A stretch of 38,164 nucleotides of DNA from positions 1 to 38,164 of IMG/VR virus record IMGVR_UViG_3300015341_000001. One strand, given 5' to 3'. Of this stretch, positions 5,522 to 26,239 are shown piece after piece. This DNA is from a virus. Under the pieces are notes generated by a model, which searched no databases, was not told the origin of the DNA, and saw nothing but the letters and a program-made list of their open reading frames with translations. Within the stretch, counting starts at the first letter, position 1. Every line of letters starts with the position of its first letter. A program made the position numbers and the translations under genes.

Positions 5522-5527
5522 CACCCT

Positions 5528-5554: not shown

Positions 5555-5582
5555 TCCATCACCCCCGAAGGGAATCAACATC

Positions 5583-5939
5583 ATGGCTCGCACCAGCGAC
5601 AAGCCCGCCGAACGCTTCTTGCCCGTCAAGATCGACACGGCTGCCTCCAAGAAGAAGCTCGACGAGGCAGAGCGCGTCGGCATCTTCGAGATCGACGGCA
5701 CCGTCTACGACATGTCCACCGCACAGCGCGCCGAGCTCGGCCTCGAGTACCTGCGACTCGTGAGCGAGCGCGGCGACGACGCGGCGGCCTACTACCTCAT
5801 CAGCGAAGCGCTCGGCCGCGAGGCGTACGCCGCCCTCGCCGCCGTCGAAGGGCTTGAGGCGAAGACGTTCGACGGGATCGTCGCCCGCATCCAGAAGGTC
5901 ACGATGCCCGAGGGCAAGGCGCCCAAGGGAAAAGGCTAA
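5583..5939 (+). CDS. Tail assembly chaperone (G-like)
   Basis: Lies directly upstream of the tape measure and ends 4 nt after a GGGAAAA slippery site. SD AAGGGAA upstream. Confidence 0.8.
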   Translation: MARTSDKPAERFLPVKIDTAASKKKLDEAERVGIFEIDGTVYDMSTAQRAELGLEYLRLVSERGDDAAAYYLISEALGREAYAALAAVEGLEAKTFDGIVARIQKVTMPEGKAPKGKG

Positions 5940-6244
5940 GGCGGATTCAGCTATGGGCATGGGCACTCGAGAACCTCGAGGACATCGAGAGCGACTTCTC
6001 GGTCTTCCATCGGGTGCCCGACCCAGAACTGCTCCCCGCCGACCGGTTCATTTCGCTCGCACAGCGCCTCCCGGCGTATAAGGGGATCGTCCGCATGAGA
6101 ATCGAGATCGAGGCCAACGAGCCCAGCTCGTCGCCCAGCCACAACTACAACGCAGGGCGCGAGTCCGTGCGCGAGGTCAAGGCGACCAGCGCGCAGCTCG
6201 CGACCGACCCGGGCCTCGGCGGCTTCTTCGAGGTGGTCGTCTAA
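5583..6244 (+). CDS. Tail assembly chaperone G-T fusion made by -1 programmed frameshift at 5927..5933
   Basis: After a -1 slip on G GGA AAA the -1 frame stays open from 5933 to the TAA at 6242..6244. It reads RLRRIQLWAWALENLEDIESDFSVFHRVPDPELL... and ends overlapping the tape-measure ATG. Confidence 0.75.
5927..5933 (+). promoter_or_regulatory. -1 ribosomal frameshift slippery heptamer G GGA AAA
   Basis: A canonical X XXY YYZ heptamer in the zero frame of the G-like gene (codons aag gga aaa ggc taa). Confidence 0.75.
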
Positions 6245-8541: not shown

Positions 8542-8552
8542 AGAGGCCGACC

Positions 8553-9620
8553 ATGAGTACAACGATCGAGCTCTCCACCGAAGACCTCACCCTCATCATC
8601 ACGCAGCGCGAGCTCTGGGCGGGCTTCGTGTTCGACAAGCTCAAGGCCTGGCAAGACCTCGCCCCCATCGACACCGAGATGCAGAAGCGGCCGAACCAGC
8701 CCGGCGCATTCGGACCGGGAACGACCGACCCGGGCTCGCTGGTCGTCACGATCGAGGGGCAGTATTTCGCCCAGACTGACGCCGAAGCGATCTACGCCCG
8801 CGAGACGATGACCGCCATGTACAACGACGGCGACCCGATCACGATGACCGTCATCGACCCGGCGCGCACCTCGAGCCGCGAGGTCTACGTCGCCGGCATC
8901 ACGTTCCCGCACAGCACCGACGCCTGCCACTTCAGCTTCGTCTTCGAGGCCGAGGCCGAAGACCCGCGCCGCTACCTCGAGCCCGTGGTCACCTCCACGG
9001 GGCTGGCGGTCGCAGGCTCCGGCGCCCGCTGGACCGGCGGCGACACCACGGCCGTCAGCTACGCGCTCACGGAGAACCCCTCGGGTAGCGGCCTCTATCA
9101 AACGGGTCACATGCAGGAGTCGCCCAGCGGCAGCGGGCTCTACGTTGCCTCGCTGCAACCCGACCAGTACAACTCGGGGCTCTACCTCACCTCCGGCACG
9201 TACCAGGACACCACGGGCGTCGCCCCGGGCTTCGACTGGAAGAACGGCGGCCCCGGCATGACGTGGGGAACGCGCCCCGTCGACGGGCGACTCCGGGTCG
9301 AAAACACCGGCAACACCGCCACGATCTCCATGTTCACGATCCGCGACGGGCAAATGATCGACGGCTTCGAGATCGTCAACGTCGAGACGGGCGAGCGGAT
9401 CGTCTACATCGGGCCGGTGACGTCGGGAACGACGGTCGTGCTGGACGGCGAAACACGCACCGCGTACATCAACGACGTGACGCCGGCCGGTCGCTTCTTG
9501 CCGAACCCCGAGTGGTGGAACGTGCCACCGCGATCCGTTCGCACGATTCAGTTCATCGCCCGCGGCGCAACGACGGGGACGCCCACTCTCTACGCTTCGA
9601 CGTCGCCCGCGCTCTACTAG
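8553..9620 (+). CDS. Distal tail protein (Dit-like) minor tail protein
   Basis: First gene after the tape measure, 355 aa, SD GAGAGG. Confidence 0.55.
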   Translation: MSTTIELSTEDLTLIITQRELWAGFVFDKLKAWQDLAPIDTEMQKRPNQPGAFGPGTTDPGSLVVTIEGQYFAQTDAEAIYARETMTAMYNDGDPITMTVIDPARTSSREVYVAGITFPHSTDACHFSFVFEAEAEDPRRYLEPVVTSTGLAVAGSGARWTGGDTTAVSYALTENPSGSGLYQTGHMQESPSGSGLYVASLQPDQYNSGLYLTSGTYQDTTGVAPGFDWKNGGPGMTWGTRPVDGRLRVENTGNTATISMFTIRDGQMIDGFEIVNVETGERIVYIGPVTSGTTVVLDGETRTAYINDVTPAGRFLPNPEWWNVPPRSVRTIQFIARGATTGTPTLYASTSPALY

Positions 9621-9634
9621 GTTAGGATTCGCTC

Positions 9635-10711
9635 ATGCCCCTCACTCGACCATTCGCCATCGACCAGGCATACGCGAACGCCTCGGACTACCGCAAGCAG
9701 CAGTCGACCATCTACCCCCGCGAGGGGCTGTTCGGCGACGGCAACGCGCTAAACAACGGCGTCGCTTACGCGAACGGCGGGTGGAACGTTGGCTCGAGGG
9801 CTTTCACGGGTGTCGCCAGGCGGAACACCACGAGCTACTCGCAGTCTTACGGCTCGGTCCTGTTCTCGAACGACTCGCAGGGAACCGCTTGGACGATCCC
9901 CGCCGCCCCCGCCACCGGTTCACGGATTGACGTCCTCTGGGTGCAGGTCACTGACCCGACACAGGGCGATCAAACCACCACGCCCAGCGGCGAAACGGTG
10001 CCGCGAGCCGTTCCCGTCTTCGGCGTCACGTCCGGTGATGCGGGCACGTCGCCAGTCGCCCGCGCCCTTCCGTCCGGCGTCATTGAGATTGCGCGAGTCA
10101 CCACCCCTTCGACGGCCACTACCATCGCCAACTCGGTCATCTCGCAGACCTACTCCTTTGCGAACGTTCTCGGCGGCATGCTCTACTTCCGCACCGTTGC
10201 GGAAATGAACGCCGACGGTCAGGCAACGAAAAGCGAGCTCGCGACCGTACTCGCCGACAACTCGGTGTGGCAGCGCGTCACCGGGCAGGGATGGCGCATC
10301 TTGCTTGCCCCCGCGTTCAATCGCAACTTCGACTTCTTCTACGTCGGAACGATCAACGCGGGAGTCGACGTCAACCTTGGAAGCTTCACGATGCCCGCCA
10401 TGCCATTCGCTTACCGAGCGATCGTGTCGATCAGCGGCACCGGCGGTGGTAACGGTTCTGCCGGTGGAAACTTCGGCATCTCGCTCGCGATCTCCGGGAC
10501 CGGCGTCACGGCCACGCCAGGCTACAACTCGCGCGCTGCCCGCTACCGCCCTTACTTCTCTCTCAACGAGCAGGCAACCATCGCCCGCACGATTCGGATC
10601 GACGTGCCCGCCAACACCTCATCAACCGTGACCGCTACGGCGGACACCTCGGCCACAGCCTCACTGAGCATCGACGTGAACGCCGCTTGCTACCCCACCG
10701 GCGAGTTCTAG
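9635..10711 (+). CDS. Minor tail protein
   Basis: 358 aa in the tail-tip block. TAGGAT lies 6 nt upstream of the ATG. Confidence 0.55.
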   Translation: MPLTRPFAIDQAYANASDYRKQQSTIYPREGLFGDGNALNNGVAYANGGWNVGSRAFTGVARRNTTSYSQSYGSVLFSNDSQGTAWTIPAAPATGSRIDVLWVQVTDPTQGDQTTTPSGETVPRAVPVFGVTSGDAGTSPVARALPSGVIEIARVTTPSTATTIANSVISQTYSFANVLGGMLYFRTVAEMNADGQATKSELATVLADNSVWQRVTGQGWRILLAPAFNRNFDFFYVGTINAGVDVNLGSFTMPAMPFAYRAIVSISGTGGGNGSAGGNFGISLAISGTGVTATPGYNSRAARYRPYFSLNEQATIARTIRIDVPANTSSTVTATADTSATASLSIDVNAACYPTGEF

Positions 10712-10719: not shown

Positions 10720-11874
10720 ATGACCCTTGACCTGTTCGCGTTCGAGATGCTCTCGGGGCGTCGCCTGACGCCGCTGCCGAAGACTTCGGCGAAGTGGCAG
10801 CTCACGACAAACGCTGACGAGTCGATCACCTGCACCATCCCCGCGAACGATCGGAACGTCAAACGCCTGCGCGTGTGGGAGATGTCGACGCTAGCCCGCA
10901 ACGGGCTGCTAGCTGTGGTCGACGGGCTGCCCGTTGCCGCAGGGCCCATTTGGCGTCGCCGGTACAACCCCGACTCGGGCCACATCGAACTCACCGCTGG
11001 CGGGCTGCGGTCCTATTTCAACAAGCGCGTAGCCGTCCCCGTCGCTGCATCGGGCCGGTCGCTCGTAGACGCTAACGGTGACCCCGTGACCGCCTACGAC
11101 ACGCGTGTGACGAACATGAGCCTAGGGACGGTCGCCAAGCGCTACGTCGAGCTCGCTCGAGCATGGCCCGGCGGGGCGATCCCGATGAGCCTTCCCGCTG
11201 ACGAGTCGCGTTCCGGCCGCGACATCACCGTCAAGGCGATCGACCTCAAGCGCGTCGGCGAACTGATCGACAACCTCAGCGACGTCATCAACGGGCCCGA
11301 CATCGCATTCCGCCCCCGCTTCACCGAAGACGGCGCGGGCATCTACTGGGAGATGCAGACGGGCACCGAAGCCAAGCCCCGCCTCGGCTCGACCGACGCG
11401 TTGGCGACAACGTGGTCGTACGGCGCGCCCAAGTCGCCCGCGTTCGACCTCGAGATCGACGAAGACGGTTCAAGCCACGCGTCGCGTTTCTGGGTCAGCG
11501 GTGGCAGCGGCTCCGACAAGGTGATCAGCGCACAGGCGTACTCGTCGATCCTCATCAGTGCTGGTTTCCCGCTGCTCGACGGTGTGGACGCGGGGAACTC
11601 AGGACTGTCGCAGCAGTCAACCGCCAACGACAAGGCCTCGCAGGGCGTCAAGCTCGGGCAGTACGCGTCCTCGTTTTGGTCCATGAAAGTGGTCGCCCAC
11701 TCCGACCGCGCACCGAAGCTCGGCGAGTATTGGCTGGGCGACCTCGCCACGATCAACATCGACAAGCGCGAGCCTGTGCTGCCGGCCGGCGACTCGGTGC
11801 GCCGCATCGCCGCGATCAGCGGTGACGAGTCGGACAAGTCCTACACCATCGACTTCGCGGAGGCGCTTGTATGA
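10720..11874 (+). CDS. Tail hub / Tal-like minor tail protein
   Basis: The N-terminus (MTLDLFAFEMLSGRRLTPLPK...ITCTIPAND...) resembles the N-terminal hub domain of siphovirus tail-associated proteins. ATG 10720 is the first start after the upstream stop. Confidence 0.5.
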   Translation: MTLDLFAFEMLSGRRLTPLPKTSAKWQLTTNADESITCTIPANDRNVKRLRVWEMSTLARNGLLAVVDGLPVAAGPIWRRRYNPDSGHIELTAGGLRSYFNKRVAVPVAASGRSLVDANGDPVTAYDTRVTNMSLGTVAKRYVELARAWPGGAIPMSLPADESRSGRDITVKAIDLKRVGELIDNLSDVINGPDIAFRPRFTEDGAGIYWEMQTGTEAKPRLGSTDALATTWSYGAPKSPAFDLEIDEDGSSHASRFWVSGGSGSDKVISAQAYSSILISAGFPLLDGVDAGNSGLSQQSTANDKASQGVKLGQYASSFWSMKVVAHSDRAPKLGEYWLGDLATINIDKREPVLPAGDSVRRIAAISGDESDKSYTIDFAEALV

Positions 11875-12878
11875 CCCGACCCGGCGACCCCCGCACACCG
11901 CTCGACGACATCGGTCGCCTGCAGGTGCAACTTCGCGACATGCTGCGGCGCCTCGGCGACCTCGAGGCTCCTTCGGGCTCGGCCGCGAACCAGAACGTCA
12001 AGAAGCTCACCGACCTCGTGACGGATATTCAGGCGCAGCTCGACGACTACATCGCGAACGGCACCTACAACAAGCAGCAGATCAACGACCTGTTGGCCAG
12101 CAAGGCGAACACGGCGCACACGCATTCCGCGAACGACATCACCACCGGCGGCGTCACTGGGAGTGGCTTCGGCGTCGGTGGCCCCCTCACCGTTCAAGGC
12201 GACATCACCGGCGGTGGTCGAGGCATCTTCCCGACCGGCATCCGCTCGAGCGGCGCGCGCAACACGCAAGTCACCAACGACTACGTGGTCGCCTACCTCA
12301 ACAGCGACGGAACGCTTGGCTACGCCCCCTCCACGCTGGCGTCGAAAGATGTCCTGGGGCCGTACGCGGTCGACATGGCGAAGTTCCTCGCCATCGACCT
12401 CTACGCCTACACCTACAAGACGGACCCGAAGAAGTCCGTCCGCATGGGACCGATCGCGGATTACCTCGACGCGGCCGGTCTAAAAGAGTTCGTGATCTAC
12501 GACCCGGACGACGCGTCGAAGATTCAGGGCCTCCGCTTCGACATGCTGATTTACGGGCTCTGGTCCGCCTACGTGCAGTCGCGGACCACGACGCTCGCCC
12601 GCATCGCGAAGCAGCTCTACCAGACGAAGACCGTCAGCGGCATGACGGCGCTCGGCCTCAATGCTGAGCGCACCTACGACATCACGTGGGACACGGCGTT
12701 TGCCGATGCGAGCTACCTCGTGAGCGCTTCGGTGAGCTCGAGTGGTGCCGCGCTGGCTGCGGTCGCCAGCATCGTGCCGGGTTCGCAGACGGCGACGGGG
12801 TGCAAGGTGAGCGTCCGAACCCTCGGCCTAGCCCTTGCATCAGGCGCAACGCTCACGGTTCAGGGCGTCCACGTTTAG
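11871..12878 (+). CDS. Tail fibre protein with an S74-like intramolecular chaperone region
   Basis: ATGA overlap and an N-terminal coiled coil. Contains the fibre motif NTAHTHSANDITTGG and a segment LASKDVLGPY...AIDLYAYTYK...RMGPIADYL...LRFDMLIYGLWSAYVQ, resembling the peptidase S74 auto-chaperone. Confidence 0.65.
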   Translation: MTRPGDPRTPLDDIGRLQVQLRDMLRRLGDLEAPSGSAANQNVKKLTDLVTDIQAQLDDYIANGTYNKQQINDLLASKANTAHTHSANDITTGGVTGSGFGVGGPLTVQGDITGGGRGIFPTGIRSSGARNTQVTNDYVVAYLNSDGTLGYAPSTLASKDVLGPYAVDMAKFLAIDLYAYTYKTDPKKSVRMGPIADYLDAAGLKEFVIYDPDDASKIQGLRFDMLIYGLWSAYVQSRTTTLARIAKQLYQTKTVSGMTALGLNAERTYDITWDTAFADASYLVSASVSSSGAALAAVASIVPGSQTATGCKVSVRTLGLALASGATLTVQGVHV

Positions 12879-12941
12879 ACTGATCGGCATGACCCCCGAC
12901 ACCGCATTGCCAGCTACGGCAAAGGATCAGGGGAAGCGATA

Positions 12942-13322
12942 GTGGACTGGCTGAATGCTTTTCTCCAAGCTGCCCCCCAAGTGGGGGTATCGTTGGGCGC
13001 AGGATCGGCGCCGTTCGTGGCGGCGATCCTGACCGACCGGCTCGTCACCAAGGCGCGGCACACCGAAGCACTGGCACAGGCGGAGAAGCGAGTGGCTCAA
13101 GCGGAAGAGAACGCGACCAGGCGCGAGGCGCTGCTCACCGAACAGCTCGCCCGATCCGACCAGGCCCTTGCCAACGAACGAGAAGCGAAGAAGGTTGAAC
13201 GTGAACGCGCTGACTCTCTCGCCGACAAGCTCGGTGAGGCAACCGCCGAGTTTGGAGCCACGATGGTCCACATGCTGGGCTCTTTCCCCCAACCAGGGGG
13301 TGGCAACGATGCCGCGGCCTAA
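12942..13322 (+). CDS. Membrane-anchored coiled-coil protein (lysis-associated?)
   Basis: GTG start. The N-terminal hydrophobic helix (VGVSLGAGSAPFVAAIL) is followed by a charged heptad-like region (EALAQAEKRVAQAEENATRREALLTEQL...). Confidence 0.6.
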   Translation: MDWLNAFLQAAPQVGVSLGAGSAPFVAAILTDRLVTKARHTEALAQAEKRVAQAEENATRREALLTEQLARSDQALANEREAKKVERERADSLADKLGEATAEFGATMVHMLGSFPQPGGGNDAAA

Positions 13323-13494
13323 CGACGACACCCTTGGTCGCTCCGAGGTTGAGCTCGCCCGGTCGCAGGCGTCGCAGGCAGCGGACGCGCCCCTCATCGC
13401 CAAGGTCGACCGCATGCTCGCAGCCCTTCGCGCGGAGCGTGAAACCAATCACTGGGCCGAAAGAGTCAAGCAGGCTTGGCAGGAGGGCCGGTAA
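13309..13494 (+). CDS. Small hypothetical helical protein
   Basis: ATG lies 8 nt after AGGGGG and the gene overlaps its upstream neighbour by 14 nt. 61 aa. Confidence 0.45.
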   Translation: MPRPNDDTLGRSEVELARSQASQAADAPLIAKVDRMLAALRAERETNHWAERVKQAWQEGR

Positions 13495-13495
13495 C

Positions 13496-13849
13496 ATGGA
13501 CTACGTGAACTCTCCGACCGTACTCGCCGCCGGCGACCTCGTGCTCGGCCTCGCGCTCATCCCCGAACTGACGTTTCTTGTCATCTACATGACGACGGCG
13601 AAGTGGTGGAAGACGGCGATCGGTCGCATGTTCGTCATCGCCCAGCTCGCCATCGTCCTCGTCTCGGTGGTCGTGCTCCTCTCCCTCATCCTCGGCACCG
13701 CCTACGCCGGCCGCGACTGGGTTCGCCTCATCGGCTACTCGGCCCACTTCGCCGGACAGATCGTGTTCCTCGTCACGTACCTCTCCACCCGCCGCGCACC
13801 CGCCGCGGCGCACGCCATCCCCAAGACCAGAATGGATACCCGCGCATGA
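13496..13849 (+). CDS. Holin-like membrane protein (3 predicted TM helices)
   Basis: Strong SD AGGAGGG 8 nt upstream. There are three hydrophobic stretches of 20-25 aa and a basic C-terminus. Confidence 0.65.
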   Translation: MDYVNSPTVLAAGDLVLGLALIPELTFLVIYMTTAKWWKTAIGRMFVIAQLAIVLVSVVVLLSLILGTAYAGRDWVRLIGYSAHFAGQIVFLVTYLSTRRAPAAAHAIPKTRMDTRA

Positions 13850-14118
13850 GCCACCACGAAGACAACAGCGACATCGGCAACGAAGACAGCTACTCGGCCA
13901 GCAAGACCCTCGAGGCCGAGACGACCATCAGCCCCAAGATCATTGTCGGCGCTGCGACCGGCCTCGTGCTCGCGATCGTCGTCGCCGTCCTCGGCGCGGT
14001 GACGCCCGACATGCTCGCCAGCCTCGGCGCGTGGGCGCCGCTCGTGTTCGTCGCCATCACCACCGCGGCGACCCAGCTCGGCGCCTACCTCAAGCGCGAT
14101 CCGCTGCGCGAGGTGTAG
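13846..14118 (+). CDS. Holin-like membrane protein (2 predicted TM helices)
   Basis: ATGA overlap. Acidic N-terminus, then IIVGAATGLVLAIVVAVLGAV and WAPLVFVAITTAATQLGAYL. Confidence 0.65.
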   Translation: MSHHEDNSDIGNEDSYSASKTLEAETTISPKIIVGAATGLVLAIVVAVLGAVTPDMLASLGAWAPLVFVAITTAATQLGAYLKRDPLREV

Positions 14119-14134
14119 TCTCCGCACCACCAAG

Positions 14135-14171
14135 CGAAGCCCCGCCGATGACGCACCTCGGCGGGGCTTCG
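14135..14171 (+). terminator. Intrinsic terminator-like hairpin after the membrane-protein cassette
   Basis: 14-bp stem cgaagccccgccga / tcggcggggcttcg with a 9-nt loop. No long U-tract, which is common in high-GC organisms. Confidence 0.6.
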
Positions 14172-14208
14172 TCATGTACGATAGCCCCAGTCCAACCAAG
14201 GAGTGAGA

Positions 14209-14541
14209 ATGCCCGCAGCAGCAGCAGGTAAAGAGGCGGTCGTCGCCGGTTACGCCGCCAACGTCGCCAAGCTGGCGCTCTTCTCCACCGCGGGAGGCGC
14301 TTCGGCCGGCACCGAGCTCTCCGGAGGGTCGCCCGCCTACGCTCGCATCACCCCCGCCGTCACCGGCGCCGGGGCGACCAGGGCACTCGCCGCCACCTTC
14401 AACGTTCCGAGCGGCGCGACCGTCGCGGGCTGGGGCGCGTACGACTCGTCCGGCACCTACGTCGACGGCGGCTCGCTCACGTCGCAGCCGTTCGCGTCGC
14501 AGGGCACGTACGCCCTGACGGTCAACGCCACCGGCGCCTAA
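14209..14541 (+). CDS. Hypothetical A/G/T-rich protein (possible fibre-associated)
   Basis: ATG lies 5 nt after AAGGAG. 110 aa. Beta-type sequence (YARITPAVTGAGATRALAATFNVPSGATVAGWGAYDSSGTYVDGG). Confidence 0.6.
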   Translation: MPAAAAGKEAVVAGYAANVAKLALFSTAGGASAGTELSGGSPAYARITPAVTGAGATRALAATFNVPSGATVAGWGAYDSSGTYVDGGSLTSQPFASQGTYALTVNATGA

Positions 14542-14555
14542 GCTAGGTCGCCCTC

Positions 14556-16046
14556 GTGGCGCTCAAAGTCCTCGACTTCGAGACAGGGCCCGAGGGCGCT
14601 GCGCTCACCAACGCCAACTCTGGGGCGACGCAGGTCAACGCCGCTTCGGGCGGCTCGGCCATCTTCGCCAAAGACGTCGTACGCTCCGGGCTTCTGGGCG
14701 CTCGATTCACCTCTGGGACGAACGCCCTGGCGATCGCCCGGTTCGCCTCGAACGCATCGAACAACACGCTGTCTGTCAGCGTGGTCTTTCAGCACAAGCA
14801 GACCCCCAGCCTGCTGACAGGTGTGCTTTCGGTGCGGCACGGCTCAGGTGTCGCGGCTCGGATCAACTGGAACCCGGACAACAGCGTCAGCGTGGTCGAC
14901 AGTGGCCTCGGCAACACGCTCACCGTGGCGACTGGGCTCACACCCGGGGCGACTTACGAATTGACGATCCGGGCGAAGTCGGCCACGACGACTACTGGAA
15001 CGATCACTGTCGTTCTCTACAGCAACGTGGGCGCCGAAATTGGACGCGCCACCTCTAGCGCGTACAACCTCACGGCCAATGCGCTCGCTGCTGTCGACGT
15101 CGGAATCATCAACACCAACTCCACCGCCGGCACCATCGTCGCTCTTGACTACCTGCAACTCGACGACGGCAACGCGAATGAACTTCGAGCACCAGCAACG
15201 ACGGTGGCCTACAGCGGCACCGGAACCACCACGGCCACCGCAACCGCTACGGGAGCGGGGGCGCCTGCGGCCTCGGGCAACAGCGCCACTACCACTACCG
15301 CTACGGCCAGTGGTTCAGGGTCGATGGCTACGAGTGGGGCAAGTTCAACCACCTCGAGCGCCACGGCCACCGGCGCTGGATCGGCAGCGACTTCCGGCTC
15401 TGCTGCCGCAAGCGCCACTGTGACGACCGTCGGGTCGGGTGTTGTCGCCTTGTCCGGTTCCGCTGCTGCAAGCGCTGCGGCGACCACTTCGAGCGCCGGC
15501 GCTGCTTCGGTCTCAGGCACCTCAAGCGTTACAGCCACCGTCACGACTACGGCTAGTGGGTCGCTAGCGACGGCGGGCAGCGCGGCCACGAGCCCCACCG
15601 TCACGGCGACGCCGAACGGCACCGCCCCCTCGGCGGGCACCGGAACCGCTACGGCCACCGTTACGGCTAGCGGAATGGGCGTCGCGACGCTGTACGGCGT
15701 TGCCGCCACTTCTGCCGCGGTTGCCGCCTCAGCACAAGGTGTGGCCGCGCTACGTGGGGCTGCAGCGGCGTCGGCATCGACCGTGGCGACCGGGCAGGGC
15801 GCGGCCTTCGCTCGCGGTACGGCTTCGACATCGCTGGTCGCCAGCACCGCCACCGATGGCGCTCCGTCGTTCTCCGGTGTCGCATTCACGCTCGCCACGG
15901 TCACTACTGTCGGTGGGCCGACCGTCGCGGCGCATGACGTCGATGTGGCCGTGTGGGCCTTGCCCCGGCGTTACGTGGTGGCGCTGCGGCCAAGGCGGTA
16001 CGATGCGATGACTGTGCCGAACCGCTGGAAAGGCGACCTACGATGA
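14556..16046 (+). CDS. Putative host-recognition fibre: N-terminal LamG/concanavalin-like domain plus 12 exact 20-aa repeats
   Basis: GTG start. Residues 1-205 are jelly-roll-like. Residues ~219-458 carry Gly at 221, 241, 261 ... 441, a strict 20-residue period with no indels. Confidence 0.7.
   Translation: MALKVLDFETGPEGAALTNANSGATQVNAASGGSAIFAKDVVRSGLLGARFTSGTNALAIARFASNASNNTLSVSVVFQHKQTPSLLTGVLSVRHGSGVAARINWNPDNSVSVVDSGLGNTLTVATGLTPGATYELTIRAKSATTTTGTITVVLYSNVGAEIGRATSSAYNLTANALAAVDVGIINTNSTAGTIVALDYLQLDDGNANELRAPATTVAYSGTGTTTATATATGAGAPAASGNSATTTTATASGSGSMATSGASSTTSSATATGAGSAATSGSAAASATVTTVGSGVVALSGSAAASAAATTSSAGAASVSGTSSVTATVTTTASGSLATAGSAATSPTVTATPNGTAPSAGTGTATATVTASGMGVATLYGVAATSAAVAASAQGVAALRGAAAASASTVATGQGAAFARGTASTSLVASTATDGAPSFSGVAFTLATVTTVGGPTVAAHDVDVAVWALPRRYVVALRPRRYDAMTVPNRWKGDLR
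15210..15929 (+). repeat. Coding tandem repeats, 12 x 60 nt (20 aa), diverged at the DNA level
   Basis: Each unit follows the pattern S-G-x-x-A-x-S-A-x-V-T-x-x-G-x-G-x-A-x-L. Phase is kept for 240 residues. Confidence 0.8.
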
Positions 16047-16303
16047 ACAGCTACGATCGCGACAGCGCCGAGTATCTCGAGCTCATCGTCACCGTCGACG
16101 GCGCGGCCGTCACGTCCGGCATCGAGTACGCCGTCACGACCGGCGATGAACGGCCTTCCGCCTGGGCGCCGGTCACAATCGTTGACGGTCGCCCCATGGC
16201 GCTGCTGCAAGGTCGAGCGCCTGGCACGTACGTCGTGTGGGCTCGCGTCACCGCAGGTAGCGAACTCGTCGTCATGCGAGTCGACACCTTCCTCGTGGTG
16301 TAG
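16043..16303 (+). CDS. Small beta-rich hypothetical protein (Ig-like?)
   Basis: ATGA overlap with the upstream gene. 86 aa with alternating hydrophobic pattern (YLELIVTVDGAAV..., GTYVVWARVTAGSELVVMRVDTFLVV). Confidence 0.6.
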   Translation: MNSYDRDSAEYLELIVTVDGAAVTSGIEYAVTTGDERPSAWAPVTIVDGRPMALLQGRAPGTYVVWARVTAGSELVVMRVDTFLVV

Positions 16304-16329
16304 GTCGCCCCATCGGCTAGGATGCACGC

Positions 16330-18039
16330 ATGGCTGCTAACGACCGCGTGCTTTCTGTCGACTACACTACAAACCTCCCACCTTCGTCGGTTCTTTCCGC
16401 GTGGGACAGCCGTAACGACACTCGCAACGACACTCGTTACTTGCCCATCGGTTCAGGTAGCGGCAGCGCAAGCAGCTCATCGCCCGACATCGCACCCATC
16501 TTCATCGAAACGCGAGACACCGGGTTGGCCGTCAAGTCGCCCGACAACCTCCGCACCGGGCTGCCGACAACCACCTCCACTGGCGGCGGTTACGCATCCG
16601 AACTGGCCATTGCCGTCACGGGAACCAAGGGCAGCAAAGTCCTCACCTCAAGCGAACCATCCAAAGTTGCAGGCCTGGGAACAAACCGTTTCGCCGCCGT
16701 CCTGAACCGAAGCAACGGCACCGACGACTTCTTCGTCACCGTCATGAGCAACGACGGAACGAGTCAAATCACTTTGCGGCGCGCTCTCGCGGCTGACTTC
16801 GCAGGCACCCTCTCGGCAAAGTACGATGCCGTTCTCGGCCAACACCTCACGCAAGCTGCCACCAAGGCGTACGTCCAGCACGCGCTCCGAGCGAACGGGG
16901 CGACTAGTGGCCGCGGCGGAATCCTCGCGGGCACATGGGACGCGCAACCGCCGACCTACAACCAGGCATGGCAGCCCAACGCAGCGCTTGTCGCCTACGG
17001 CAAAATCAACTCCGCGGCACCCATCATCCGTACCGAGCAGACCATTCAGTCAACGCACAACGTTCTCAGCACCGTCGACTTCCTTGAACTGCACCCGTGC
17101 GTCGCTTCGTCCGGCGTGCAGACCGGAACTCACAAGCTCGGGCATGGTTCCGAAGCGACCATCTACACGGGGCGCAAGCCGGCAGTGTTGGAGTTCTACA
17201 CTTCCGCGCTTCGAAGTGGCGAGAGTGGGACCGGCTACACTCTGCGCGTCACGGCTGTCGCGGACGGGGTAACGCTCTACGACCGCGAACACGATGCGTT
17301 CCTGACCCGCGTGAACGTTCCCGTTTCCGGTTTCGACAAGGTGACCGTGAGCGTCACCAACAACAACAGCACGGACACTCCTTACGCGCTATACCTGTCT
17401 AACTTGCTTCTCCGCGAGGCAGGCTCGAGCGGCAAGGTCGGACGCGGCAAGGTCGTCGTCTTGGGCGACTCGTGGGGTGCTTACTACGACGGTGCACTCG
17501 GCAAGGCCATCGCCTCCAAGGCTGGCTCTGCCGTGGTTACGAAAGCTCTCGGCGGGACAACTACGGATTGGGCGCTCGACTGGTTCGACAGCTACGTGTT
17601 GCCCGAAAAGCCCGACGAGTGCTGGATTCACTTCTTCACCAACGATGCAAACCAGACATCCGGCACGTACGTCGCCCCCGACGGCACCACGAAACCGCTG
17701 TGGCCGTCTGGGCTGACATCTGACCAGTCAATGGCCCGGTGGCGTCAGAACCTGCTCACGCTGATTTTCCGGTGCCAGCAGGCCGGTATCCGCCCGGTCA
17801 TCTTCATGCCTGGCGGTACGGCCTCGGAGTCGCAGATGCAACGGCACACCGTGTGGGCACAGGGGCTTGAACGTCCCGCCCTGGTCAACTACCAGCCCAC
17901 AACCACCGAGCTGGCAGATGCAACCGCCTACGTGAACGTCGTCGGCAAACGGACCGGTGCCGTCATGCAGGTGGGCACGTCCCCCAAATATGCTTCTGGC
18001 CCTGCGCCGGCGGATGCTTGGGTGACAGCCACCGCCTAG
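16330..18039 (+). CDS. SGNH/GDSL hydrolase-domain protein (putative polysaccharide esterase, tail spike-like)
   Basis: The C-terminal region (~17446..17859) has block I VVVLGDSWG, block II KALGGTTT and block III HFFTNDAN. I did not identify a DxxH block V. The N-terminal 370 aa are S/T/G-rich and beta-type. Confidence 0.8.
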   Translation: MAANDRVLSVDYTTNLPPSSVLSAWDSRNDTRNDTRYLPIGSGSGSASSSSPDIAPIFIETRDTGLAVKSPDNLRTGLPTTTSTGGGYASELAIAVTGTKGSKVLTSSEPSKVAGLGTNRFAAVLNRSNGTDDFFVTVMSNDGTSQITLRRALAADFAGTLSAKYDAVLGQHLTQAATKAYVQHALRANGATSGRGGILAGTWDAQPPTYNQAWQPNAALVAYGKINSAAPIIRTEQTIQSTHNVLSTVDFLELHPCVASSGVQTGTHKLGHGSEATIYTGRKPAVLEFYTSALRSGESGTGYTLRVTAVADGVTLYDREHDAFLTRVNVPVSGFDKVTVSVTNNNSTDTPYALYLSNLLLREAGSSGKVGRGKVVVLGDSWGAYYDGALGKAIASKAGSAVVTKALGGTTTDWALDWFDSYVLPEKPDECWIHFFTNDANQTSGTYVAPDGTTKPLWPSGLTSDQSMARWRQNLLTLIFRCQQAGIRPVIFMPGGTASESQMQRHTVWAQGLERPALVNYQPTTTELADATAYVNVVGKRTGAVMQVGTSPKYASGPAPADAWVTATA

Positions 18040-18845
18040 AACGGCGGGGGCGCGTCGGCCGAGCGGGGCACGTAGATTCTTACGGCGCCCCGCTCGTCGC
18101 GTGTGCCGCCGATGAGCTCGAGGCCCTCCGGCGTCATCGCGTGAATCTCAGCAAGCTTGCCGACGCGTTGACGCTCTGGCTGGGGCTGTGCCGCCGCCTG
18201 CGGAACTTTCTGCCCCACCGTGGCAAACGGTGGCGGCTTGGGCTTCTCGTCCGTCACAGCGGCGCTGAGCGGCTGCTGGCGTTCCGGGGTGACCCAGTTG
18301 CCCGATGTGGGCGGCGTGTTCATGTAGTGCCACAAGGCTTGGGCGATCGCCATCGAGTCCCACGCCGCGCCCTTGAGGTCGTGGTTACAGCGAGAGCAGA
18401 GGAGCCCCAGCACGGCGCCCGTCTTGTGATCGTGGTCGACGGCGAGGCGCTTCGACTTCGGGCGCGCGCGGCAGATGGCGCACCTCCCGTCCTGCAGCGT
18501 AAGCAGCTGCTCGTACTGGTCGGCCGTCAAGCCGTACGTCTTCTCGACAGACACGGCGTGGGACTTGGCCGAAGAGCATGCGCGGCAGGTGGTCGCCCCC
18601 TTGCCAAAGTCCGCGTCGTCACGGAACGTCTGGCATGCCGCGCACCATGCGGTGCCGGCAGGCGCTGCAACCTGCATCGCCTTCGTACGTTTCAGCCGCA
18701 ACGCCTCAGGGACCATCGCCAGGCGGCGGCGCGACTCGGCGACCTGCTCACCGATCGGCGCATGACGAAGGGCGCACACCCGACACCGCTGGCGGGGCAG
18801 GTCTTTCGGCCTGACTCCACACTCGCGGCACGGTTGTGCGCCCAT
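18036..18845 (-). CDS. Endonuclease VII-type Holliday junction resolvase with an N-terminal Cys-rich region
   Basis: Motif DGRCAICRARP...LAVDHDHKTGAVLGLLCSRCNHDL matches the Endonuclease_7 family signature. Confidence 0.85.
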   Translation of the reverse strand: MGAQPCRECGVRPKDLPRQRCRVCALRHAPIGEQVAESRRRLAMVPEALRLKRTKAMQVAAPAGTAWCAACQTFRDDADFGKGATTCRACSSAKSHAVSVEKTYGLTADQYEQLLTLQDGRCAICRARPKSKRLAVDHDHKTGAVLGLLCSRCNHDLKGAAWDSMAIAQALWHYMNTPPTSGNWVTPERQQPLSAAVTDEKPKPPPFATVGQKVPQAAAQPQPERQRVGKLAEIHAMTPEGLELIGGTRDERGAVRIYVPRSADAPPPF

Positions 18846-18848
18846 CGG

Positions 18849-19343
18849 TTACTTGTTCTTCTTCGTCTTGGCCTTGGCGGCGGCGAACGCGTCGGACTTG
18901 CGTTCCGCGTTGGCGGCCTCGGCGAAGTCCGCGTCGAGCGCTTCCGCGGCGTCGTGACGGATGAACGTCGCATGCTCCGCCCACACCTTGACTTCTTCGC
19001 CGAGGCCGTTGATGACCGCGAGGAACGTGCCGCCCTGGTCGATGCCGACACTCTCGACGTGGTACTCAGCGAAGGCTTCGCCGGGAATGCTCACGACGTC
19101 GCCCATTCGCCAGTCGCGCTCGACGGGATCGGGAACGCGTTCCGGCTTAGGGGCGGGAACGGTGACGTCAGGGCCGTGATACTCGTTCGGCCCATTCTGC
19201 GCGATGAGCTGCGCGACGGACTCGGCGAGGGCGACGGTCGCCAGGGCATGGATGCGGGCGACATCCCGGTCGGCCTTGGCGAGGTTGGTGACGCGCCTGG
19301 TCCCATCGAGTTCTTCGCGCATCAAGTCAAAGTGGTAGGTCAC
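18849..19343 (-). CDS. Hypothetical protein
   Basis: 164-aa ORF, tightly packed (3-nt gap to the next gene), with coding-like composition. Confidence 0.6.
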   Translation of the reverse strand: MTYHFDLMREELDGTRRVTNLAKADRDVARIHALATVALAESVAQLIAQNGPNEYHGPDVTVPAPKPERVPDPVERDWRMGDVVSIPGEAFAEYHVESVGIDQGGTFLAVINGLGEEVKVWAEHATFIRHDAAEALDADFAEAANAERKSDAFAAAKAKTKKNK

Positions 19344-19489
19344 TTCGCGTCACCGCCAGTGAGGTACGCCTCAAAGGTCTTGGCAATGGCGACGAGCTGG
19401 TCGCCAGTGACTTCGTTGCCTTCGCTGACGGCCGTGATCCCGAGCGCAACCGCGTGATCGAGCGCTTCGCGCTTCACGTCTTTGTCCAT
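19340..19489 (-). CDS. Small hypothetical protein
   Basis: Internal ATG at 19489 (MDKDVKREALDH...). The longer ORF-track version would run through the terminator hairpin. ATGA-type overlap with the next gene. Confidence 0.45.
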   Translation of the reverse strand: MDKDVKREALDHAVALGITAVSEGNEVTGDQLVAIAKTFEAYLTGGDAK

Positions 19490-19535
19490 GATGTTTATCC
19501 AATCCTTGAAAAGCGGGGTAAAGCAAGAAAAGGGG

Positions 19536-19580
19536 GCGGGGCGGCCGGTAGAGGTTCGGGTCAACTACCGACCGCCCCGC
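19536..19580 (-). terminator. Intrinsic terminator on the minus strand
   Basis: 16-bp stem with one mismatch (gcggggcggccggtag / ctaccgaccgccccgc). On the minus-strand RNA it is followed by CCCCUUUUCUUGCUU. Confidence 0.65.
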
Positions 19581-19588
19581 GAGGGGTG

Positions 19589-20062
19589 TTACTGCTTGAA
19601 AGGGTCGACGCTATCGAGGTAGGAGCGGGCGGCGTCTGCATCCTGCTCGCTCACGTCCTCGAGCTGCCACGCCTGCGTGCCGTACTTCGGGTCTTTGATC
19701 TTGACCAGGCGCCCGAGGACCTTGCGCTCTCCGACGAAGCCACGGAGCGAGCCCTGCAGGTAGCGAGGGAAGACCCACGCGTCGAGGTGGAGCTCGGACT
19801 CGGCCGGCTTCTTCTCGTTGATCTCCACGATGTCGGCGACGATGTGGTCTTCGCTCTTGGTCTTGTCGCTGTACGACGGGTGCTGGCCGATGCTCTTCGG
19901 GGTGAAGAGGAACAGCTTGCCGAGGTTGTCGTCGGAGCTGATCTTCCAACCGTCACCACCGCCGGTACCCTCGCTCGGCTGAGCAAAGCTGCCGTCGCCG
20001 CCCTTCTTGGCCTTCTTCTCGGCCTTGTCGCTGTCGTTCTTCTTGCTCTTGTCCTTAGCCAT
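19589..20062 (-). CDS. Lys-rich hypothetical protein, possible ssDNA-binding protein
   Basis: 157 aa with an N-terminal KKNDSDKAEKKAKKGG tail. The beta-rich core is followed by an acidic C-terminus ...YLDSVDPFKQ, reminiscent of the SSB D-(I/P)-P-F tip. It lies next to the exonuclease gene. Confidence 0.6.
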   Translation of the reverse strand: MAKDKSKKNDSDKAEKKAKKGGDGSFAQPSEGTGGGDGWKISSDDNLGKLFLFTPKSIGQHPSYSDKTKSEDHIVADIVEINEKKPAESELHLDAWVFPRYLQGSLRGFVGERKVLGRLVKIKDPKYGTQAWQLEDVSEQDADAARSYLDSVDPFKQ

Positions 20063-20130
20063 GATGCGTTTCCGTTTCTCGTTTGCGTTTTCGGTTGCCC
20101 GTCGCAGGTAGCGGCGGGAGTCTGTGGGTG

Positions 20131-20259
20131 CTACTCGGGTTGAGCTAAGCCAGTTTGGCCACAGGCGAGACAGGGCTCGTCATCGCGCATGTCGCCGCCG
20201 TCGAAGTAGCCTGCTCCAAGGCAGTGGAAACAAACTTCGACCTCTTCGGGGTCGCTCAT
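20131..20259 (-). CDS. 42-aa zinc-ribbon peptide (two CxxCxGxG-like motifs)
   Basis: ATG 20259 overlaps the exonuclease stop (ATGA). Sequence MSDPEEVEVCFHCLGAGYFDGGDMRDDEPCLACGQTGLAQPE. Confidence 0.5.
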   Translation of the reverse strand: MSDPEEVEVCFHCLGAGYFDGGDMRDDEPCLACGQTGLAQPE

Positions 20260-22070
20260 TCGCCCGCCTCGACCCTCGCGTTGAACGCCGCGACCGCAGC
20301 GGGGTCGGCGAGGTCGACCGACTTGTCGATGGCGCGCTTGCCGGTGTTGCGGAACGCGCGACCCTCGGCGGTGATGCGGTTGCCGAGGCGACCGGTCACG
20401 AGGTCGACCGCGTAGATGTGGCACGTGCCGGTTCCCTGCGGCAGGTGAATCACCACGCCCTTCGTGCGCGACAGCTTGAGGTCTTCGCGCTCGTCGGGGC
20501 GCTCCGGGTCGTAGCCCTGCATGCCCGCGTAGTTCTCAAGCTGCAGCGACAGGCTGATGCCGTAGTCGATCGAGCCCGTCTTGATGTCGCTGACGACCCG
20601 CACGGCGCGCTTCATGCCGGGGAACTTCACGAGGCTGATGCGGTCGAGGCGACCGGCGACCTTGCGCTCGTCATCGACGACGAACTTCTCGTACTCGACG
20701 TGCTTGATGCCCGACGCCTCGATCGCACGGCCGTACGCTTCGATGTCAGCGAGGTCCGCCGGCGTGATCTTGCCCTCGGTGAGCAGCTCGGCCACGGCAT
20801 CGATGCCCTCCTTGTCGTAGAGCTCGGCGAGAGCGTGCAGCTCGGTGCCCTTGTTCGCCGCCTCCTTCGAGCCGCCCAGCTCCTCGAGCTCGACAATCAG
20901 GCCGTTGACGCCATCCTTGAACGTCTTTTCGGCGGCGGCGACGAGCGTCGCCAGTTCCCCGACGGCGAGCTTGCCCTTGCGGTCGGCCTTCCGCGCTTTG
21001 GCGATGGCGACGTCGCGGTTGTGCATGAGGTCGCGGATCGTCCCGAGGCGATCGACGATCTCGCCGTCCTCGCCGGGAGTCTGGTCGAGGATGACACCCT
21101 CGAGCAGTTTCCGCTTGGACCACTTCTCGAGGTTCGTCTTGTCCTCGATCAGCTTGATGTACGTCGTGACGCGGGTGTAGCCCTTGAGCTTGCCGTCGGC
21201 GCCCTGCACCTTGTACTGGCCGAGCCCGTTCAGCTTGATGTACGTCGTGACGCGGGTGTAGCCCTTGAGCTTGCCGTCGGCGCCCTGCACCTTGTACTGG
21301 CCGAGCCCGTTCAGCTCGACCTCCGGCTTCGCGTCACTCGGCACCGCGAACGCGGCAGGCTCGGACTCGGCTGCAGCGTCGCTTGTGCCGGCCTCGAAGA
21401 CGCGGCCCTTCTCCGTCTCGACCTCTTCGACCACCTGGTCAACAGCAGACTCGAGCTCGGCCACGGCTTCGGTGGCGTGCTCGACGACAAGCTCGACAGG
21501 TGTCGGCCCCTTTTCGATGACGACCGGCGGCGTGGTCTGCAGCGGCGTGACGCCCTTGACGCGCTTATCGCTGGCGTCTTGCTCGGCGGTCGACGTGGCG
21601 TAGCTGCCGGTCGCCTTGCCGTACGTGTCGTTGTACGCGGCGACGGCCTCGGCGTCGGAGCGGTCGAGCGCTTCGAGCGCGGCCGGGGCGTCACGGCGCA
21701 GACGCTTCGCGCTGACGCGCGCCTTGATCTCCGCGTCAGTGTCGTCGTCGCTCGGAACGGTGACGCCCAGCAGCGCGGCCTCGGCCTTCTTCTTCGCCGC
21801 GGTGGCTGCTGCGATGGCGCCCTTGCTCGAGCCTTTGGCGGTGAGGATGCGGTCGGCCGAAGCAATGATCGACTGGGGTGTCACGCTGTTCTCGACGTCG
21901 GCGGCAGCTTCGGTGACGACGTGCCGGTCAATCGTTTCGAGAATCGGCTTCGGCTTCTTGCTCTTCTTCTTGCCGGCCTTCTTCGCGGCCTTGGCCTCGC
22001 GTTCGGCGAGCTCGGCGGCGAGGGCGGCCTCGCGTTCGGCGAGGCGGCGCTGCTCTTTCTTCTTGCCCAT
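20256..22070 (-). CDS. PD-(D/E)XK (RecB/Cas4/lambda Exo-like) exonuclease with a long low-complexity N-terminal extension
   Basis: Motifs GTELHALAE, AGRLDRI, VSDIKTG (D-x-K) and QLENYAG. ATG 22070 lies 7 nt after GAAGGGA; the ORF-track start at 22121 is a TTG. Confidence 0.8.
   Translation of the reverse strand: MGKKKEQRRLAEREAALAAELAEREAKAAKKAGKKKSKKPKPILETIDRHVVTEAAADVENSVTPQSIIASADRILTAKGSSKGAIAAATAAKKKAEAALLGVTVPSDDDTDAEIKARVSAKRLRRDAPAALEALDRSDAEAVAAYNDTYGKATGSYATSTAEQDASDKRVKGVTPLQTTPPVVIEKGPTPVELVVEHATEAVAELESAVDQVVEEVETEKGRVFEAGTSDAAAESEPAAFAVPSDAKPEVELNGLGQYKVQGADGKLKGYTRVTTYIKLNGLGQYKVQGADGKLKGYTRVTTYIKLIEDKTNLEKWSKRKLLEGVILDQTPGEDGEIVDRLGTIRDLMHNRDVAIAKARKADRKGKLAVGELATLVAAAEKTFKDGVNGLIVELEELGGSKEAANKGTELHALAELYDKEGIDAVAELLTEGKITPADLADIEAYGRAIEASGIKHVEYEKFVVDDERKVAGRLDRISLVKFPGMKRAVRVVSDIKTGSIDYGISLSLQLENYAGMQGYDPERPDEREDLKLSRTKGVVIHLPQGTGTCHIYAVDLVTGRLGNRITAEGRAFRNTGKRAIDKSVDLADPAAVAAFNARVEAGE
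21150..21311. repeat. Perfect 2 x 81-bp tandem duplication inside the exonuclease gene
   Basis: 21150..21230 is identical to 21231..21311, and the next 5 nt also match. It encodes LNGLGQYKVQGADGKLKGYTRVTTYIK twice, in frame. Confidence 0.95.
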
Positions 22071-26017: not shown

Positions 26018-26239
26018 TTACGCGGGACTGATGACCGTGACGATGATGCGCCAGGTGAAGTGATCCCATTTGCCATCGCGGGCACTCGTCACCGTGGCGC
26101 CCTCGGGCACCTTCGCGGCGAACTGCCGCGCCCACAGCGCCGGGTCCGTTTCGCGCAGCTCGTGCAGCAGCTTGAACGTGCCGCGACCGGTGCGGAACGT
26201 CGCCACGAGGTCATGTTCGAGCGGCTCGAGGTGGGTCAT
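26018..26239 (-). CDS. Hypothetical protein
   Basis: 73-aa ORF with an ATGA overlap with the methyltransferase gene. Confidence 0.6.
   Translation of the reverse strand: MTHLEPLEHDLVATFRTGRGTFKLLHELRETDPALWARQFAAKVPEGATVTSARDGKWDHFTWRIIVTVISPA

Follow-up and report, generated by a model that had tools for sequence, protein, structure and literature searches.

We examined a 38,164-nucleotide (nt) window, positions 1 to 38,164 of IMG/VR virus record IMGVR_UViG_3300015341_000001. This window is a siphophage genome of 66% G+C, lying on the metagenome contig ena:ERZ27250641:k141_380283 (38,343 nt). Our subject is a block of four rightward genes that stands between the holin genes and the leftward arm. 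We call these genes g110, g496, g86, and g569, after the lengths of their products in amino acids (aa). The features of the block are as follows.

14135-14171, plus strand: GC-rich hairpin between the last holin-like gene and g110, with a perfect 14-bp stem (14135-14148 paired with 14158-14171) and a 9-nt loop
14198-14203, plus strand: Shine-Dalgarno sequence AAGGAG, 5 nt before the g110 ATG (14209), read from the sequence
14209-14541, plus strand: g110, 110 aa
14556-16046, plus strand: g496, 496 aa
14556-15200, plus strand: g496 head (residues 1-215), a concanavalin-A-like (ConA-like; LamG-type) beta-sandwich and the variable part of the protein
15204-15923, plus strand: g496 shaft (residues 217-456), twelve tandem 20-residue Ala/Thr/Ser/Gly repeats with the consensus a-x-S-G-...-G-x-G-x-a, parsed by eye
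15924-16046, plus strand: g496 C-terminal tail, with RRY/RRY/NRW motifs in the last 40 residues; the motif recurs in a prophage locus (L012)
16043-16303, plus strand: g86, 86 aa, whose start overlaps the g496 stop
16330-18039, plus strand: g569, 569 aa
16330-16413, plus strand: g569 residues 1-28, a conserved N-terminal segment and the sole part in common with a 554-aa esterase of a sister phage (contig L014)
16414-16436, plus strand: 12-nt tandem duplication (AACGACACTCGC, 1.9 copies) encoding NDTRNDTR, directly after the breakpoint with L014 and in a low-confidence linker
16492-17424, plus strand: g569 residues 55-365, with a small beta domain, a helical segment, and a beta-sandwich resembling a carbohydrate-binding module (CBM); contains GQH172LT
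17425-18039, plus strand: g569 residues 366-569, an SGNH-like alpha/beta domain with GDSW 379-382 at nt 17464-17475
18036-18845, minus strand: endonuclease VII, the first gene of the convergent leftward arm and the right boundary of the module; 93% identical in L014

An earlier note on this DNA, made from the sequence alone, had described four rightward genes here that run head-on into the leftward arm, and both points hold. The sizes of 110, 496, 86, and 569 aa agree between the open reading frame (ORF) list and independent gene calls from two samples, on the source contig and on an identical fragment from the second sample. The endonuclease VII gene converges on g569, and its end overlaps the g569 stop codon (18037-18039). 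The module genes lie on the same strand as the late genes and are separated by gaps of 14 to 26 nt, with g496 and g86 overlapping. Homologs elsewhere were found for all four proteins. None of the four window proteins reached the threshold of a family in Pfam, PHROGs, or NCBIfam.

The four-gene block is accessory. A megablast search of 12800-18900 against 50,697 phage records returned only one match, the endonuclease VII gene of Microbacterium phage OscarSo, and OscarSo is the sole cultured relative at the DNA level, through this gene only. It shares the gene order of the window, with an endolysin gene before the scaffold gene, four minor tail protein genes, genes for a membrane protein and a holin, and a convergent endonuclease VII gene. 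As the closest cultured phage of the same architecture, OscarSo has nothing between holin and endonuclease VII. The more distant Arthrobacter phage Bennie, found via its Tal-like protein, also has no such genes after its lysis genes.

Comparison with a syntenic, uncultured sister phage (IMG/VR contigs L013 and L014) shows domain-level mosaicism with sharp breakpoints. The Dit and Tal proteins of the two phages are 90% and 85% identical. Identity is 55% in the g496 head and 73% in the C-terminal 182 aa of g496. In the g569 slot, 22 of the first 28 residues are identical and the remainder is unrelated. The L014 protein in this slot (554 aa) bears at its N-terminus a canonical Lipase_GDSL_2 domain (E = 2.5e-18) that includes a DxxH block, and it matches tail-fiber PHROGs (phrog_8460, E = 4.7e-15). 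The DNA breakpoints lie at ~16407 on the left and at the stop-codon overlap with the endonuclease VII gene on the right. The canonical fiber is also mosaic, its first ~40 residues being kept in L014 (5398-5739), where the protein is shorter (113 aa) and unrelated thereafter. Furthermore, the g496 head of the window has 83% identity to its counterpart in prophage L012, which is otherwise unrelated. The earlier note had suggested an exchangeable recognition or enzyme cassette, separate from the canonical fiber, and had pointed to relatives as the place to look for swapping. Their comparison supports swapping, with the block absent in OscarSo and its domains diverged or replaced in L014; however, the block is not one cassette, and its presence on the virion is something we infer.

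We find that the block consists of two independently mobile units, one being g110-g496-g86 and the other g569. In L012, genes resembling g110, g496, and g86 occur together, upstream of HNH, small terminase, and large terminase genes, and the fetched locus has no SGNH gene. The seven loci with g569 homologs (L001, L002, L006, and L008 to L011) have no relatives of g110, g496, or g86. Within these, the g569 homolog directly follows baseplate genes in L009 and L011, lies between head and tail genes in L006 and L010, is the last late-arm gene in L008, and directly follows holin genes in the Frigoribacterium-type prophages L001 and L002. Genes resembling g110 and g496 co-occur in three contexts: the window and L014, L012, and L023. 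In the last of these, the g110-like gene (47% identical) comes directly after a 1414-aa tape measure gene, and the g496-family member is a protein with ConA-like and PKD domains (hhalign probability 98.4%). More distant relatives of g496 were found after a collagen/PTR fiber gene (L020) and near the end of a late arm before an integrase gene (L018).

The gene order in L023 (an IMG/VR contig, 1725-10076) is 1414-aa tape measure, g110-like protein, 189-aa protein, 604-aa beta-helix protein, and ConA-like plus PKD protein. There is no recognizable Dit or Tal between the tape measure gene and the g110-like, beta-helix, and ConA-like genes. The g110-like protein here carries the motif LHTGDPG...GGSPAYARITP, and the N-terminus of the beta-helix protein matches the GH120 xylosidase 3vst (E = 1.6e-8).

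The earlier note had called g496 LamG-like with a repeat shaft. The AlphaFold2 (AF2) model of g496 residues 1-222 is a curved, two-sheet beta-sandwich of 15 strands, with a predicted local distance difference test score (pLDDT) of 94.7. In Foldseek comparisons, the top 50 Protein Data Bank (PDB) matches of the head are all ConA-like (TM-scores of 0.5 to 0.63, E = 1e-8 to 1e-5). They include the PL20 glucuronan lyase 2zzj, alginate lyases (6kcw, 5gmt, and 1uai), and X122 domains, with further matches to legume lectins, sialidase lectin domains, and CBM2 of the phage J-1 Dit (5ly8). The ConA-like fold thus bears out the LamG-like label, but no Pfam family is reached: the head has no Pfam, PHROG, NCBIfam, or PDB sequence match, and a head profile likewise found nothing among PDB sequences. 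The modeled fold is that of either a lectin or a polysaccharide-lyase-like domain, which are indistinguishable here. R62, R94, Y134, Y155, and D198 are conserved across 31 relatives of the head.

Relatives of the g496 head had to be detected by exhaustive HMMER searching with residues 1-215, which yielded 126 representatives. In nearly all of them the domain sits at the very N-terminus, and after it come repeats rich in Ala/Gly/Thr/Ser/Leu, modules of PKD-like or Ig-like type, or short tails that contain W. In a word-indexed protein search, the head alone had no match and a 31-sequence profile had only four. A tblastn search of the 50,697 phage records matched neither the head (E limit of 1) nor full-length g496 (E limit of 1e-3), and a scan of genome contigs for the head found no relative. 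The search for loci with the head used a six-sequence alignment, the 31-sequence set being too diverse. The repeat shaft stands as described, with twelve 20-residue repeats seen by eye and two DNA repeat families (D1 and D2) spaced mostly at multiples of 60 nt; Tandem Repeats Finder (TRF) found no tandem array in it. The motif-bearing C-terminal tail, the conserved end of the protein, is a candidate attachment segment.

The g569 family is small, with only 16 relatives among 5.8 billion sequences. Its members have residues ~55-569 in common and differ in their N-termini, which include collagen-like G-X-Y runs in some and Mtd_N in one (E = 2.3e-13). Some relatives also have a C-terminal extension of ~170 residues. 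The AF2 model of g569 (pLDDT of 85, predicted TM-score of 0.83) places a disordered segment at residues 1-52 (pLDDT below 50), after which come a small, helix-bearing beta domain and a beta-sandwich; the alpha/beta domain starts at about residue 370. PDB fold matches of the protein comprise CE2 acetyl-xylan esterases, CBM22, CBM27, and CBM51, GDSL lipases, and the HFTV1 capsid turret deacetylase. For the alpha/beta domain, Foldseek found CE2 esterases, 1yzf (26% identity), and 4lhs, and the flavodoxin-like order of strands and helices fits. The duplication at 16414-16436 sits where DNA similarity to L014 stops (~16407) and may be a recombination scar or a linker expansion.

Three of the SGNH blocks are recognizable in g569. 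Block I is GDSW 379-382, which follows strand 374-379 and in which D380, S381, and W382 are invariant in 17 of 17 sequences. For blocks II and III, G408 and G409 are at least 90% conserved, and F435, N438, D439, and N441 are invariant (FFTNDxN). One homolog, P0013, matches PF13472, the best family-scan E-value being 3.7e-7. The earlier description of g569 as an SGNH esterase is thus upheld in part, by the GDSW, GG, and NDxN blocks and the CE2/GDSL fold, but not by Pfam scores or by the block V histidine, two points to which we return below. The only invariant histidine of the family is H172, in GQHLT (residues 170-174, nt 16837-16851), which precedes a helix and lies ~210 residues upstream of GDSW. 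GQHLT may be a displaced SGNH block V. Grafting residues 164-195 behind the last SGNH strand gave no Pfam gain (15.0 versus 14.8 bits; a control graft reached 22.4), and this sequence test thus lent the idea no support. In the phage records, the sole tblastn hit of g569 was to 97 residues of an SGNH-annotated protein of Vibrio phage 1.170.O.

Two other roles for g569 were considered and rejected. It is not the missing endolysin or a LysB-like lysis esterase, given that a VanY-type endolysin is encoded at 164-916, as in OscarSo, and that relatives of g569 lie inside tail modules. Nor is it the SGNH partner of an AT3 acyltransferase of the OafA/OatA kind: an AT3 gene is missing from the window, g569 carries no signal for export, and the AT3 genes of the prophages are on the opposite strand.

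Of the two small proteins, g110, which is Ala/Gly/Thr-rich, is 95% identical in L014; its homologs precede the ConA-like gene in L012 and share a gene cluster with the g496-family member in L023. It had no match in tblastn against the phage records (E limit of 1) and matches no PHROG at E ≤ 1. However, its L012 homolog (31% identical, same synteny) matches phrog_240 'head protein' (E = 2.5e-5). A strong member of this family (E = 3.3e-27) is a 110-aa Mooglevirus protein encoded two genes after the portal, which corresponds to the 110-aa chain of the Shigella phage Sf14 neck structure, PDB 9C39. This structure includes a whisker (PMC11821841). Gene order suggests that the 110-aa chain is gp31, the neck whisker. 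g110 is itself 110 aa long, and its last 45 residues align position for position with gp31/phrog_240, but direct comparisons of g110 or a g110 profile are not significant, and profiles of three and five g110 homologs did not improve the 9C39 match. The relation is possibly real, and we treat it as a lead only. g86, a putative Ig-like protein in the earlier note, is 88% identical in L014 and 36% identical in L012, is always found directly after the ConA-like gene, and had no significant match, to an Ig-like family or any other, in Pfam, PHROG, NCBIfam, or PDB searches.

The hairpin ahead of g110 has a folding energy of −38 kcal/mol (z = −4.7), and none of 200 shuffled sequences folds as well. 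Its stem is kept in L014, where the loop alone is altered. No T-run (U-tract) is present 3' of the stem, where TCATGTACGATAGCC comes next, and a terminator scan did not call the hairpin. Note that hairpin terminators without a U-tail are on record in Actinobacteria. The element might act in termination, in attenuation, or in RNA stability, so that the earlier call of a terminator is matched by a strong GC-rich stem-loop but not by a U-tract or the scan. The strong Shine-Dalgarno sequence reported ahead of the 110-aa gene is confirmed. A consensus scan of 11000-20500 found no sigma-70-like promoter. Of the separate expression signals proposed for the module, therefore, only half are seen: the hairpin and the Shine-Dalgarno sequence are there, but a U-tract and a detectable promoter are not.

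No signal peptide or transmembrane segment is visible by eye in any of the four proteins, which fits assembly in the cytoplasm. G+C content at third codon positions (GC3) is 0.74 to 0.75 in g496 and g569, whereas the majority of core structural genes in this arm have 0.84 to 0.93, as would fit genes that were acquired more recently.

We favor, with moderate confidence, an interpretation of the module as accessory appendages, expressed late and carried on the virion, of which g496 binds a wall glycopolymer and g569 de-acylates it. An accessory block, small partners and terminal segments that are kept while carbohydrate-facing domains are exchanged, and recurrence in unrelated tail and neck modules together form the signature of receptor-binding modules, and it is this pattern that speaks for appendages on the particle. 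Late co-transcription would come about by read-through of the hairpin. The proteins would attach to the virion at the baseplate or the neck, and g569 would act as an esterase on a glycan substrate. Side fibers or whiskers of this kind would provide a second, carbohydrate-directed contact with the host envelope besides the canonical fiber. In the first unit, g496 would present an N-terminal sugar-binding (possibly lyase-like) head on its twelve-repeat shaft, with the C-terminal RRY tail, g110, and g86 serving assembly or attachment. In the second, the 28-residue N-terminal segment of g569 would dock the protein and, with a flexible linker, carry the CBM-like sandwich and the SGNH-type esterase. 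g569 could then bind and de-O-acylate the cell-wall glycopolymer, which would expose the receptor or make binding reversible.

Several observations weigh against virion-borne appendages. There is no direct evidence of any of the four proteins in the particle. A strong hairpin and the holin genes precede the block, a position that is usual for morons and lysis accessories and not for structural genes. g569 and its closest relatives, P0002 and P0003, have a short N-terminus (~50 disordered residues) with no recognizable anchor or trimerization domain. None of the 17 sequences of the family, g569 among them, has a histidine at the canonical block V (DxxH) position or a conserved one C-terminal of residue 441, so that activity of g569 is uncertain. 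The protein also scores below all Pfam, PHROG, and NCBIfam thresholds (PF19040 gives 13.4 bits against a cut-off of 27). Finally, g110 matches Sf14 gp31 weakly in direct comparison (9C39_K at E = 0.26, profile at 0.95; hhalign probabilities of 1.4 to 39%).

Some of these points would suit the main rival reading, that of soluble enzymes that are freed at lysis and are not part of the particle. Such enzymes would strip or de-acylate wall glycopolymers to finish lysis or to destroy receptors on debris, the latter keeping progeny from being trapped. The block directly follows holin genes in the window and L014, as does the g569 homolog in L001 and L002; the short, disordered N-terminus of g569 offers no obvious anchor; and lysis functions are already dispersed, with the endolysin gene far off at 164-916. 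However, the 28-residue segment is kept across two unrelated enzyme bodies, which is hard to explain without a docking partner. Relatives with collagen-like, Mtd_N, or fiber-type N-termini lie inside tail or head-neck gene blocks, and the L014 allele matches tail-fiber PHROGs. OscarSo, moreover, has no such genes after its holin gene, so this architecture does not need them for lysis. We therefore regard soluble lysis enzymes as unlikely.

The phrog_240 match of the L012 g110 homolog, in the family of the presumptive gp31 whisker, raises another alternative, namely that the proteins are neck or head decorations (whiskers or head fibers) that mediate loose, reversible, Hoc-type-like adhesion to polysaccharides rather than tail-tip fibers. 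The genes of two g569 homologs, P0004 and P0014, stand between head and tail genes; the fold matches of g569 include the HFTV1 capsid turret deacetylase; and the three-gene unit of L012 adjoins packaging and head genes. Other homologs, though, follow baseplate genes (L009 and L011) or the tape measure gene (L023), and the similarity between g110 and gp31 is not significant when the two are compared directly. We consider this placement improbable; it is a variant of virion-borne appendages and not their opposite. A moron or lysogenic-conversion cassette, expressed apart from the late operon and altering the host surface, for example, for superinfection exclusion, would account for the position behind a hairpin where the two arms meet, the lower GC3 of g496 and g569 than of core structural genes, and the SGNH genes in the late arms of L001, L002, and L011 with Wzy_C and Acyl_transf_3 genes just beyond, but it is very improbable, because the proteins have no visible signal peptide or membrane segment and so no route to the surface of a living cell, the genes lie on the late strand with the g496/g86 overlap and gaps of 14 to 26 nt, no promoter-like site was found, and no integrase domain was seen among the scanned large ORFs of the window.

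Virion-borne binding and de-acylating appendages would belong to a known theme. Deacetylation of capsules or O-antigens by SGNH receptor-binding proteins is well established, with experimental support, and such proteins are common in temperate phages (PMC13123978, PMC8471582). Examples are the SGNH receptor-binding proteins of Klebsiella prophages (PMC13123978) and the structural deacetylase of Acinetobacter phage Aristophanes (PMC8471582), and SGNH 'depolymerases' have been predicted in prophages of Curtobacterium, a genus of the Microbacteriaceae (PMC9862828). Like SGNH tail fibers and tailspikes, g569 is the product of a late gene and fuses an SGNH domain to carbohydrate-binding beta domains; N-termini vary within its family, bodies are swapped between related phages, and the L014 allele matches tail-fiber PHROGs. 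Another SGNH-domain tail fiber/tailspike deacetylase is gp63.1 of E. coli phage G7C. In its modular exchange, g569 conforms to the virion-associated SGNH receptor-binding class, its first 28 residues being kept while the body is replaced, and its homologs occupying tail-fiber or head-neck slots. It differs from these proteins in having a conserved N-terminus of only 28 residues without a recognizable anchor or trimerization domain, in lacking block V DxxH, and in being encoded after holin genes rather than among tail genes.

The best whole-length match of g569 is BFVD A0A2I7RES9 (867 aa; Foldseek E = 1.5e-26, query TM-score (TMq) of 0.60 over 544 columns), although overall identity is 18%. Vibrio phage 1.170.O gp057, annotated 'SGNH hydrolase-type esterase domain protein', is also 867 aa long and may be the same protein as A0A2I7RES9. 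Like g569, gp057 has a GQHL(T/S) motif ~210 to 225 residues upstream of (G/A)DSW and is encoded by the last gene of a rightward block ahead of leftward genes. Its identity to g569, by contrast, is 32% and confined to a 109-residue stretch. The Vibrio phage protein, itself uncharacterized, also has an N-terminal region ~300 residues longer than that of g569, and phage 1.170.O has a 134-kb genome and a Gram-negative marine Vibrio host. CE2 esterases (Est2A 3u37/4dev, CtCE2 2wao, and CjCE2 2waa), the top PDB matches (E = 1e-9 to 1e-7), likewise have a carbohydrate-binding beta-sandwich followed by an SGNH domain. However, global TM-scores are 0.14 to 0.29, so that the domains match and the arrangement does not, and CE2 enzymes retain the block V histidine that g569 lacks. 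CE2 enzymes use a Ser-His dyad with no Asp.

The g496 head has the same fold as ConA-like proteins of the PL20 and PL36/PL14/PL7 lyases and legume lectins, but without sequence-level family membership. CBM2 of the Lactobacillus phage J-1 Dit (5ly8) shows that ConA-like modules can serve as receptor-binding additions on siphophage tails. The polarity of g496 is the reverse of that of most fibers, with an N-terminal head and a conserved, presumed anchor at the C-terminus. g110 and g496 had no tblastn match in GenBank phage records (g86 was outside this search), and g110, g496, and g86 have no direct PHROGs match. Overall, the module is a clear but not extraordinary example of a known theme. Less usual are its position after holin genes behind a hairpin, its split into two independently mobile units, and an esterase-like protein without the canonical catalytic histidine, yet with a conserved GQH motif far upstream.

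A more far-reaching joint reading is possible, though rather doubtful. The g569 family, including its Vibrio phage relatives, would be SGNH esterases with a discontinuous active site, the histidine having moved to the GQH(L)T-helix across an inserted carbohydrate-binding sandwich. Separately, g110-g496-g86 would represent an uncharacterized class of 'backwards' actinophage appendages, with an N-terminal head and a C-terminal anchor. This unit could be insertable at a minimum of three positions: after lysis genes, before terminase genes, and after the tape measure gene.

Host range is poorly understood in actinobacteriophages, the majority of whose 'minor tail proteins' lack an assigned function. 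The window and its sister phage provide a compact natural experiment, in which a lectin-like head and a whole esterase body make up most of the difference between two nearly isogenic uncultured phages, and the breakpoints are mapped to a few codons. Should the proteins be on the particle, the 28-residue segment of g569 and the RRY tail of g496 are candidate universal adaptors for swapping receptor-binding modules among Microbacteriaceae phages, and such adaptors would be useful for host-range engineering. Deacetylation of surface glycans as a means of infection would, through the esterase family, reach Gram-positive hosts of high GC as well. In addition, the family would pose a mechanistic question, that of an SGNH domain without its usual catalytic histidine.

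Three of the prophages with g569 homologs carry convergent Wzy_C and Acyl_transf_3 genes just past the end of the late arm (L001, 11775-14145; L002, 11782-14152; and L011, 13810-16180). Wzy_C is O-antigen polymerase/ligase-like. The pair directly follows the g569 homolog in L001 and L002. In L011, it lies between lysis-like genes and the integrase gene and is therefore phage-borne. The joint presence in a prophage of an acyltransferase and an esterase for glycans suggests lysogenic conversion paired with a matching virion enzyme.

The remaining genes of the rightward arm, whose architecture OscarSo shares, are as follows.

About 33100-34637, rightward arm: terminase
35418-36983, rightward arm: portal
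37288-38163, rightward arm: MuF-like gene
164-916, rightward arm: VanY/M15 peptidase (Pfam E = 5e-8)
948-1655, rightward arm: scaffold
1793-2749, rightward arm: capsid
4973-5521, rightward arm: tail tube
6244-8541, rightward arm: tape measure
8553-9620, rightward arm: Dit, followed by a 358-aa protein
10720-11874, rightward arm: Tal-like minor tail protein
11871-12878, rightward arm: canonical fiber, 335 aa, with a weak Peptidase_S74 match
12942-14118, plus strand: four small genes before the module, encoding a transmembrane and coiled-coil protein (126 aa), a DUF7620 protein (61 aa), a Phage_holin_2 protein (117 aa), and a transmembrane protein (90 aa)

No endolysin was found among the four small genes. 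The sole peptidoglycan-hydrolase candidate is the VanY/M15 peptidase, encoded between the MuF-like and scaffold genes, ~12 kb from the holin genes, in the slot that the annotated endolysin (gene 14) occupies in OscarSo. A holin cassette without an endolysin is thus explained by the OscarSo layout, the VanY protein being the counterpart of gene 14. What the earlier note had called a lysis-like cassette does contain a Phage_holin_2 protein and small membrane and coiled-coil proteins, but its endolysin is absent and the VanY-type candidate lies at 164-916. The scanned large ORFs of the window show no integrase domain, and the phage may therefore be lytic, as OscarSo is presumed to be.

The C-terminal segment ITW..AF.D.SY.V of the canonical fiber recurs in a 162-aa ORF of L012 (10342-10830; 46% identity over 35 residues). 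ORFs 5349-5939 and 6014-6244, which separate the tail tube gene from the tape measure gene, stand in the expected place of tail assembly chaperones with a programmed frameshift, and the OscarSo annotation has a joined chaperone at this location. Among the products of the leftward arm are a Dam-type N6-adenine methyltransferase (26236-27006, minus strand) and a large PrimPol/D5_N/DUF5906 primase-helicase (26951-29395, minus strand).

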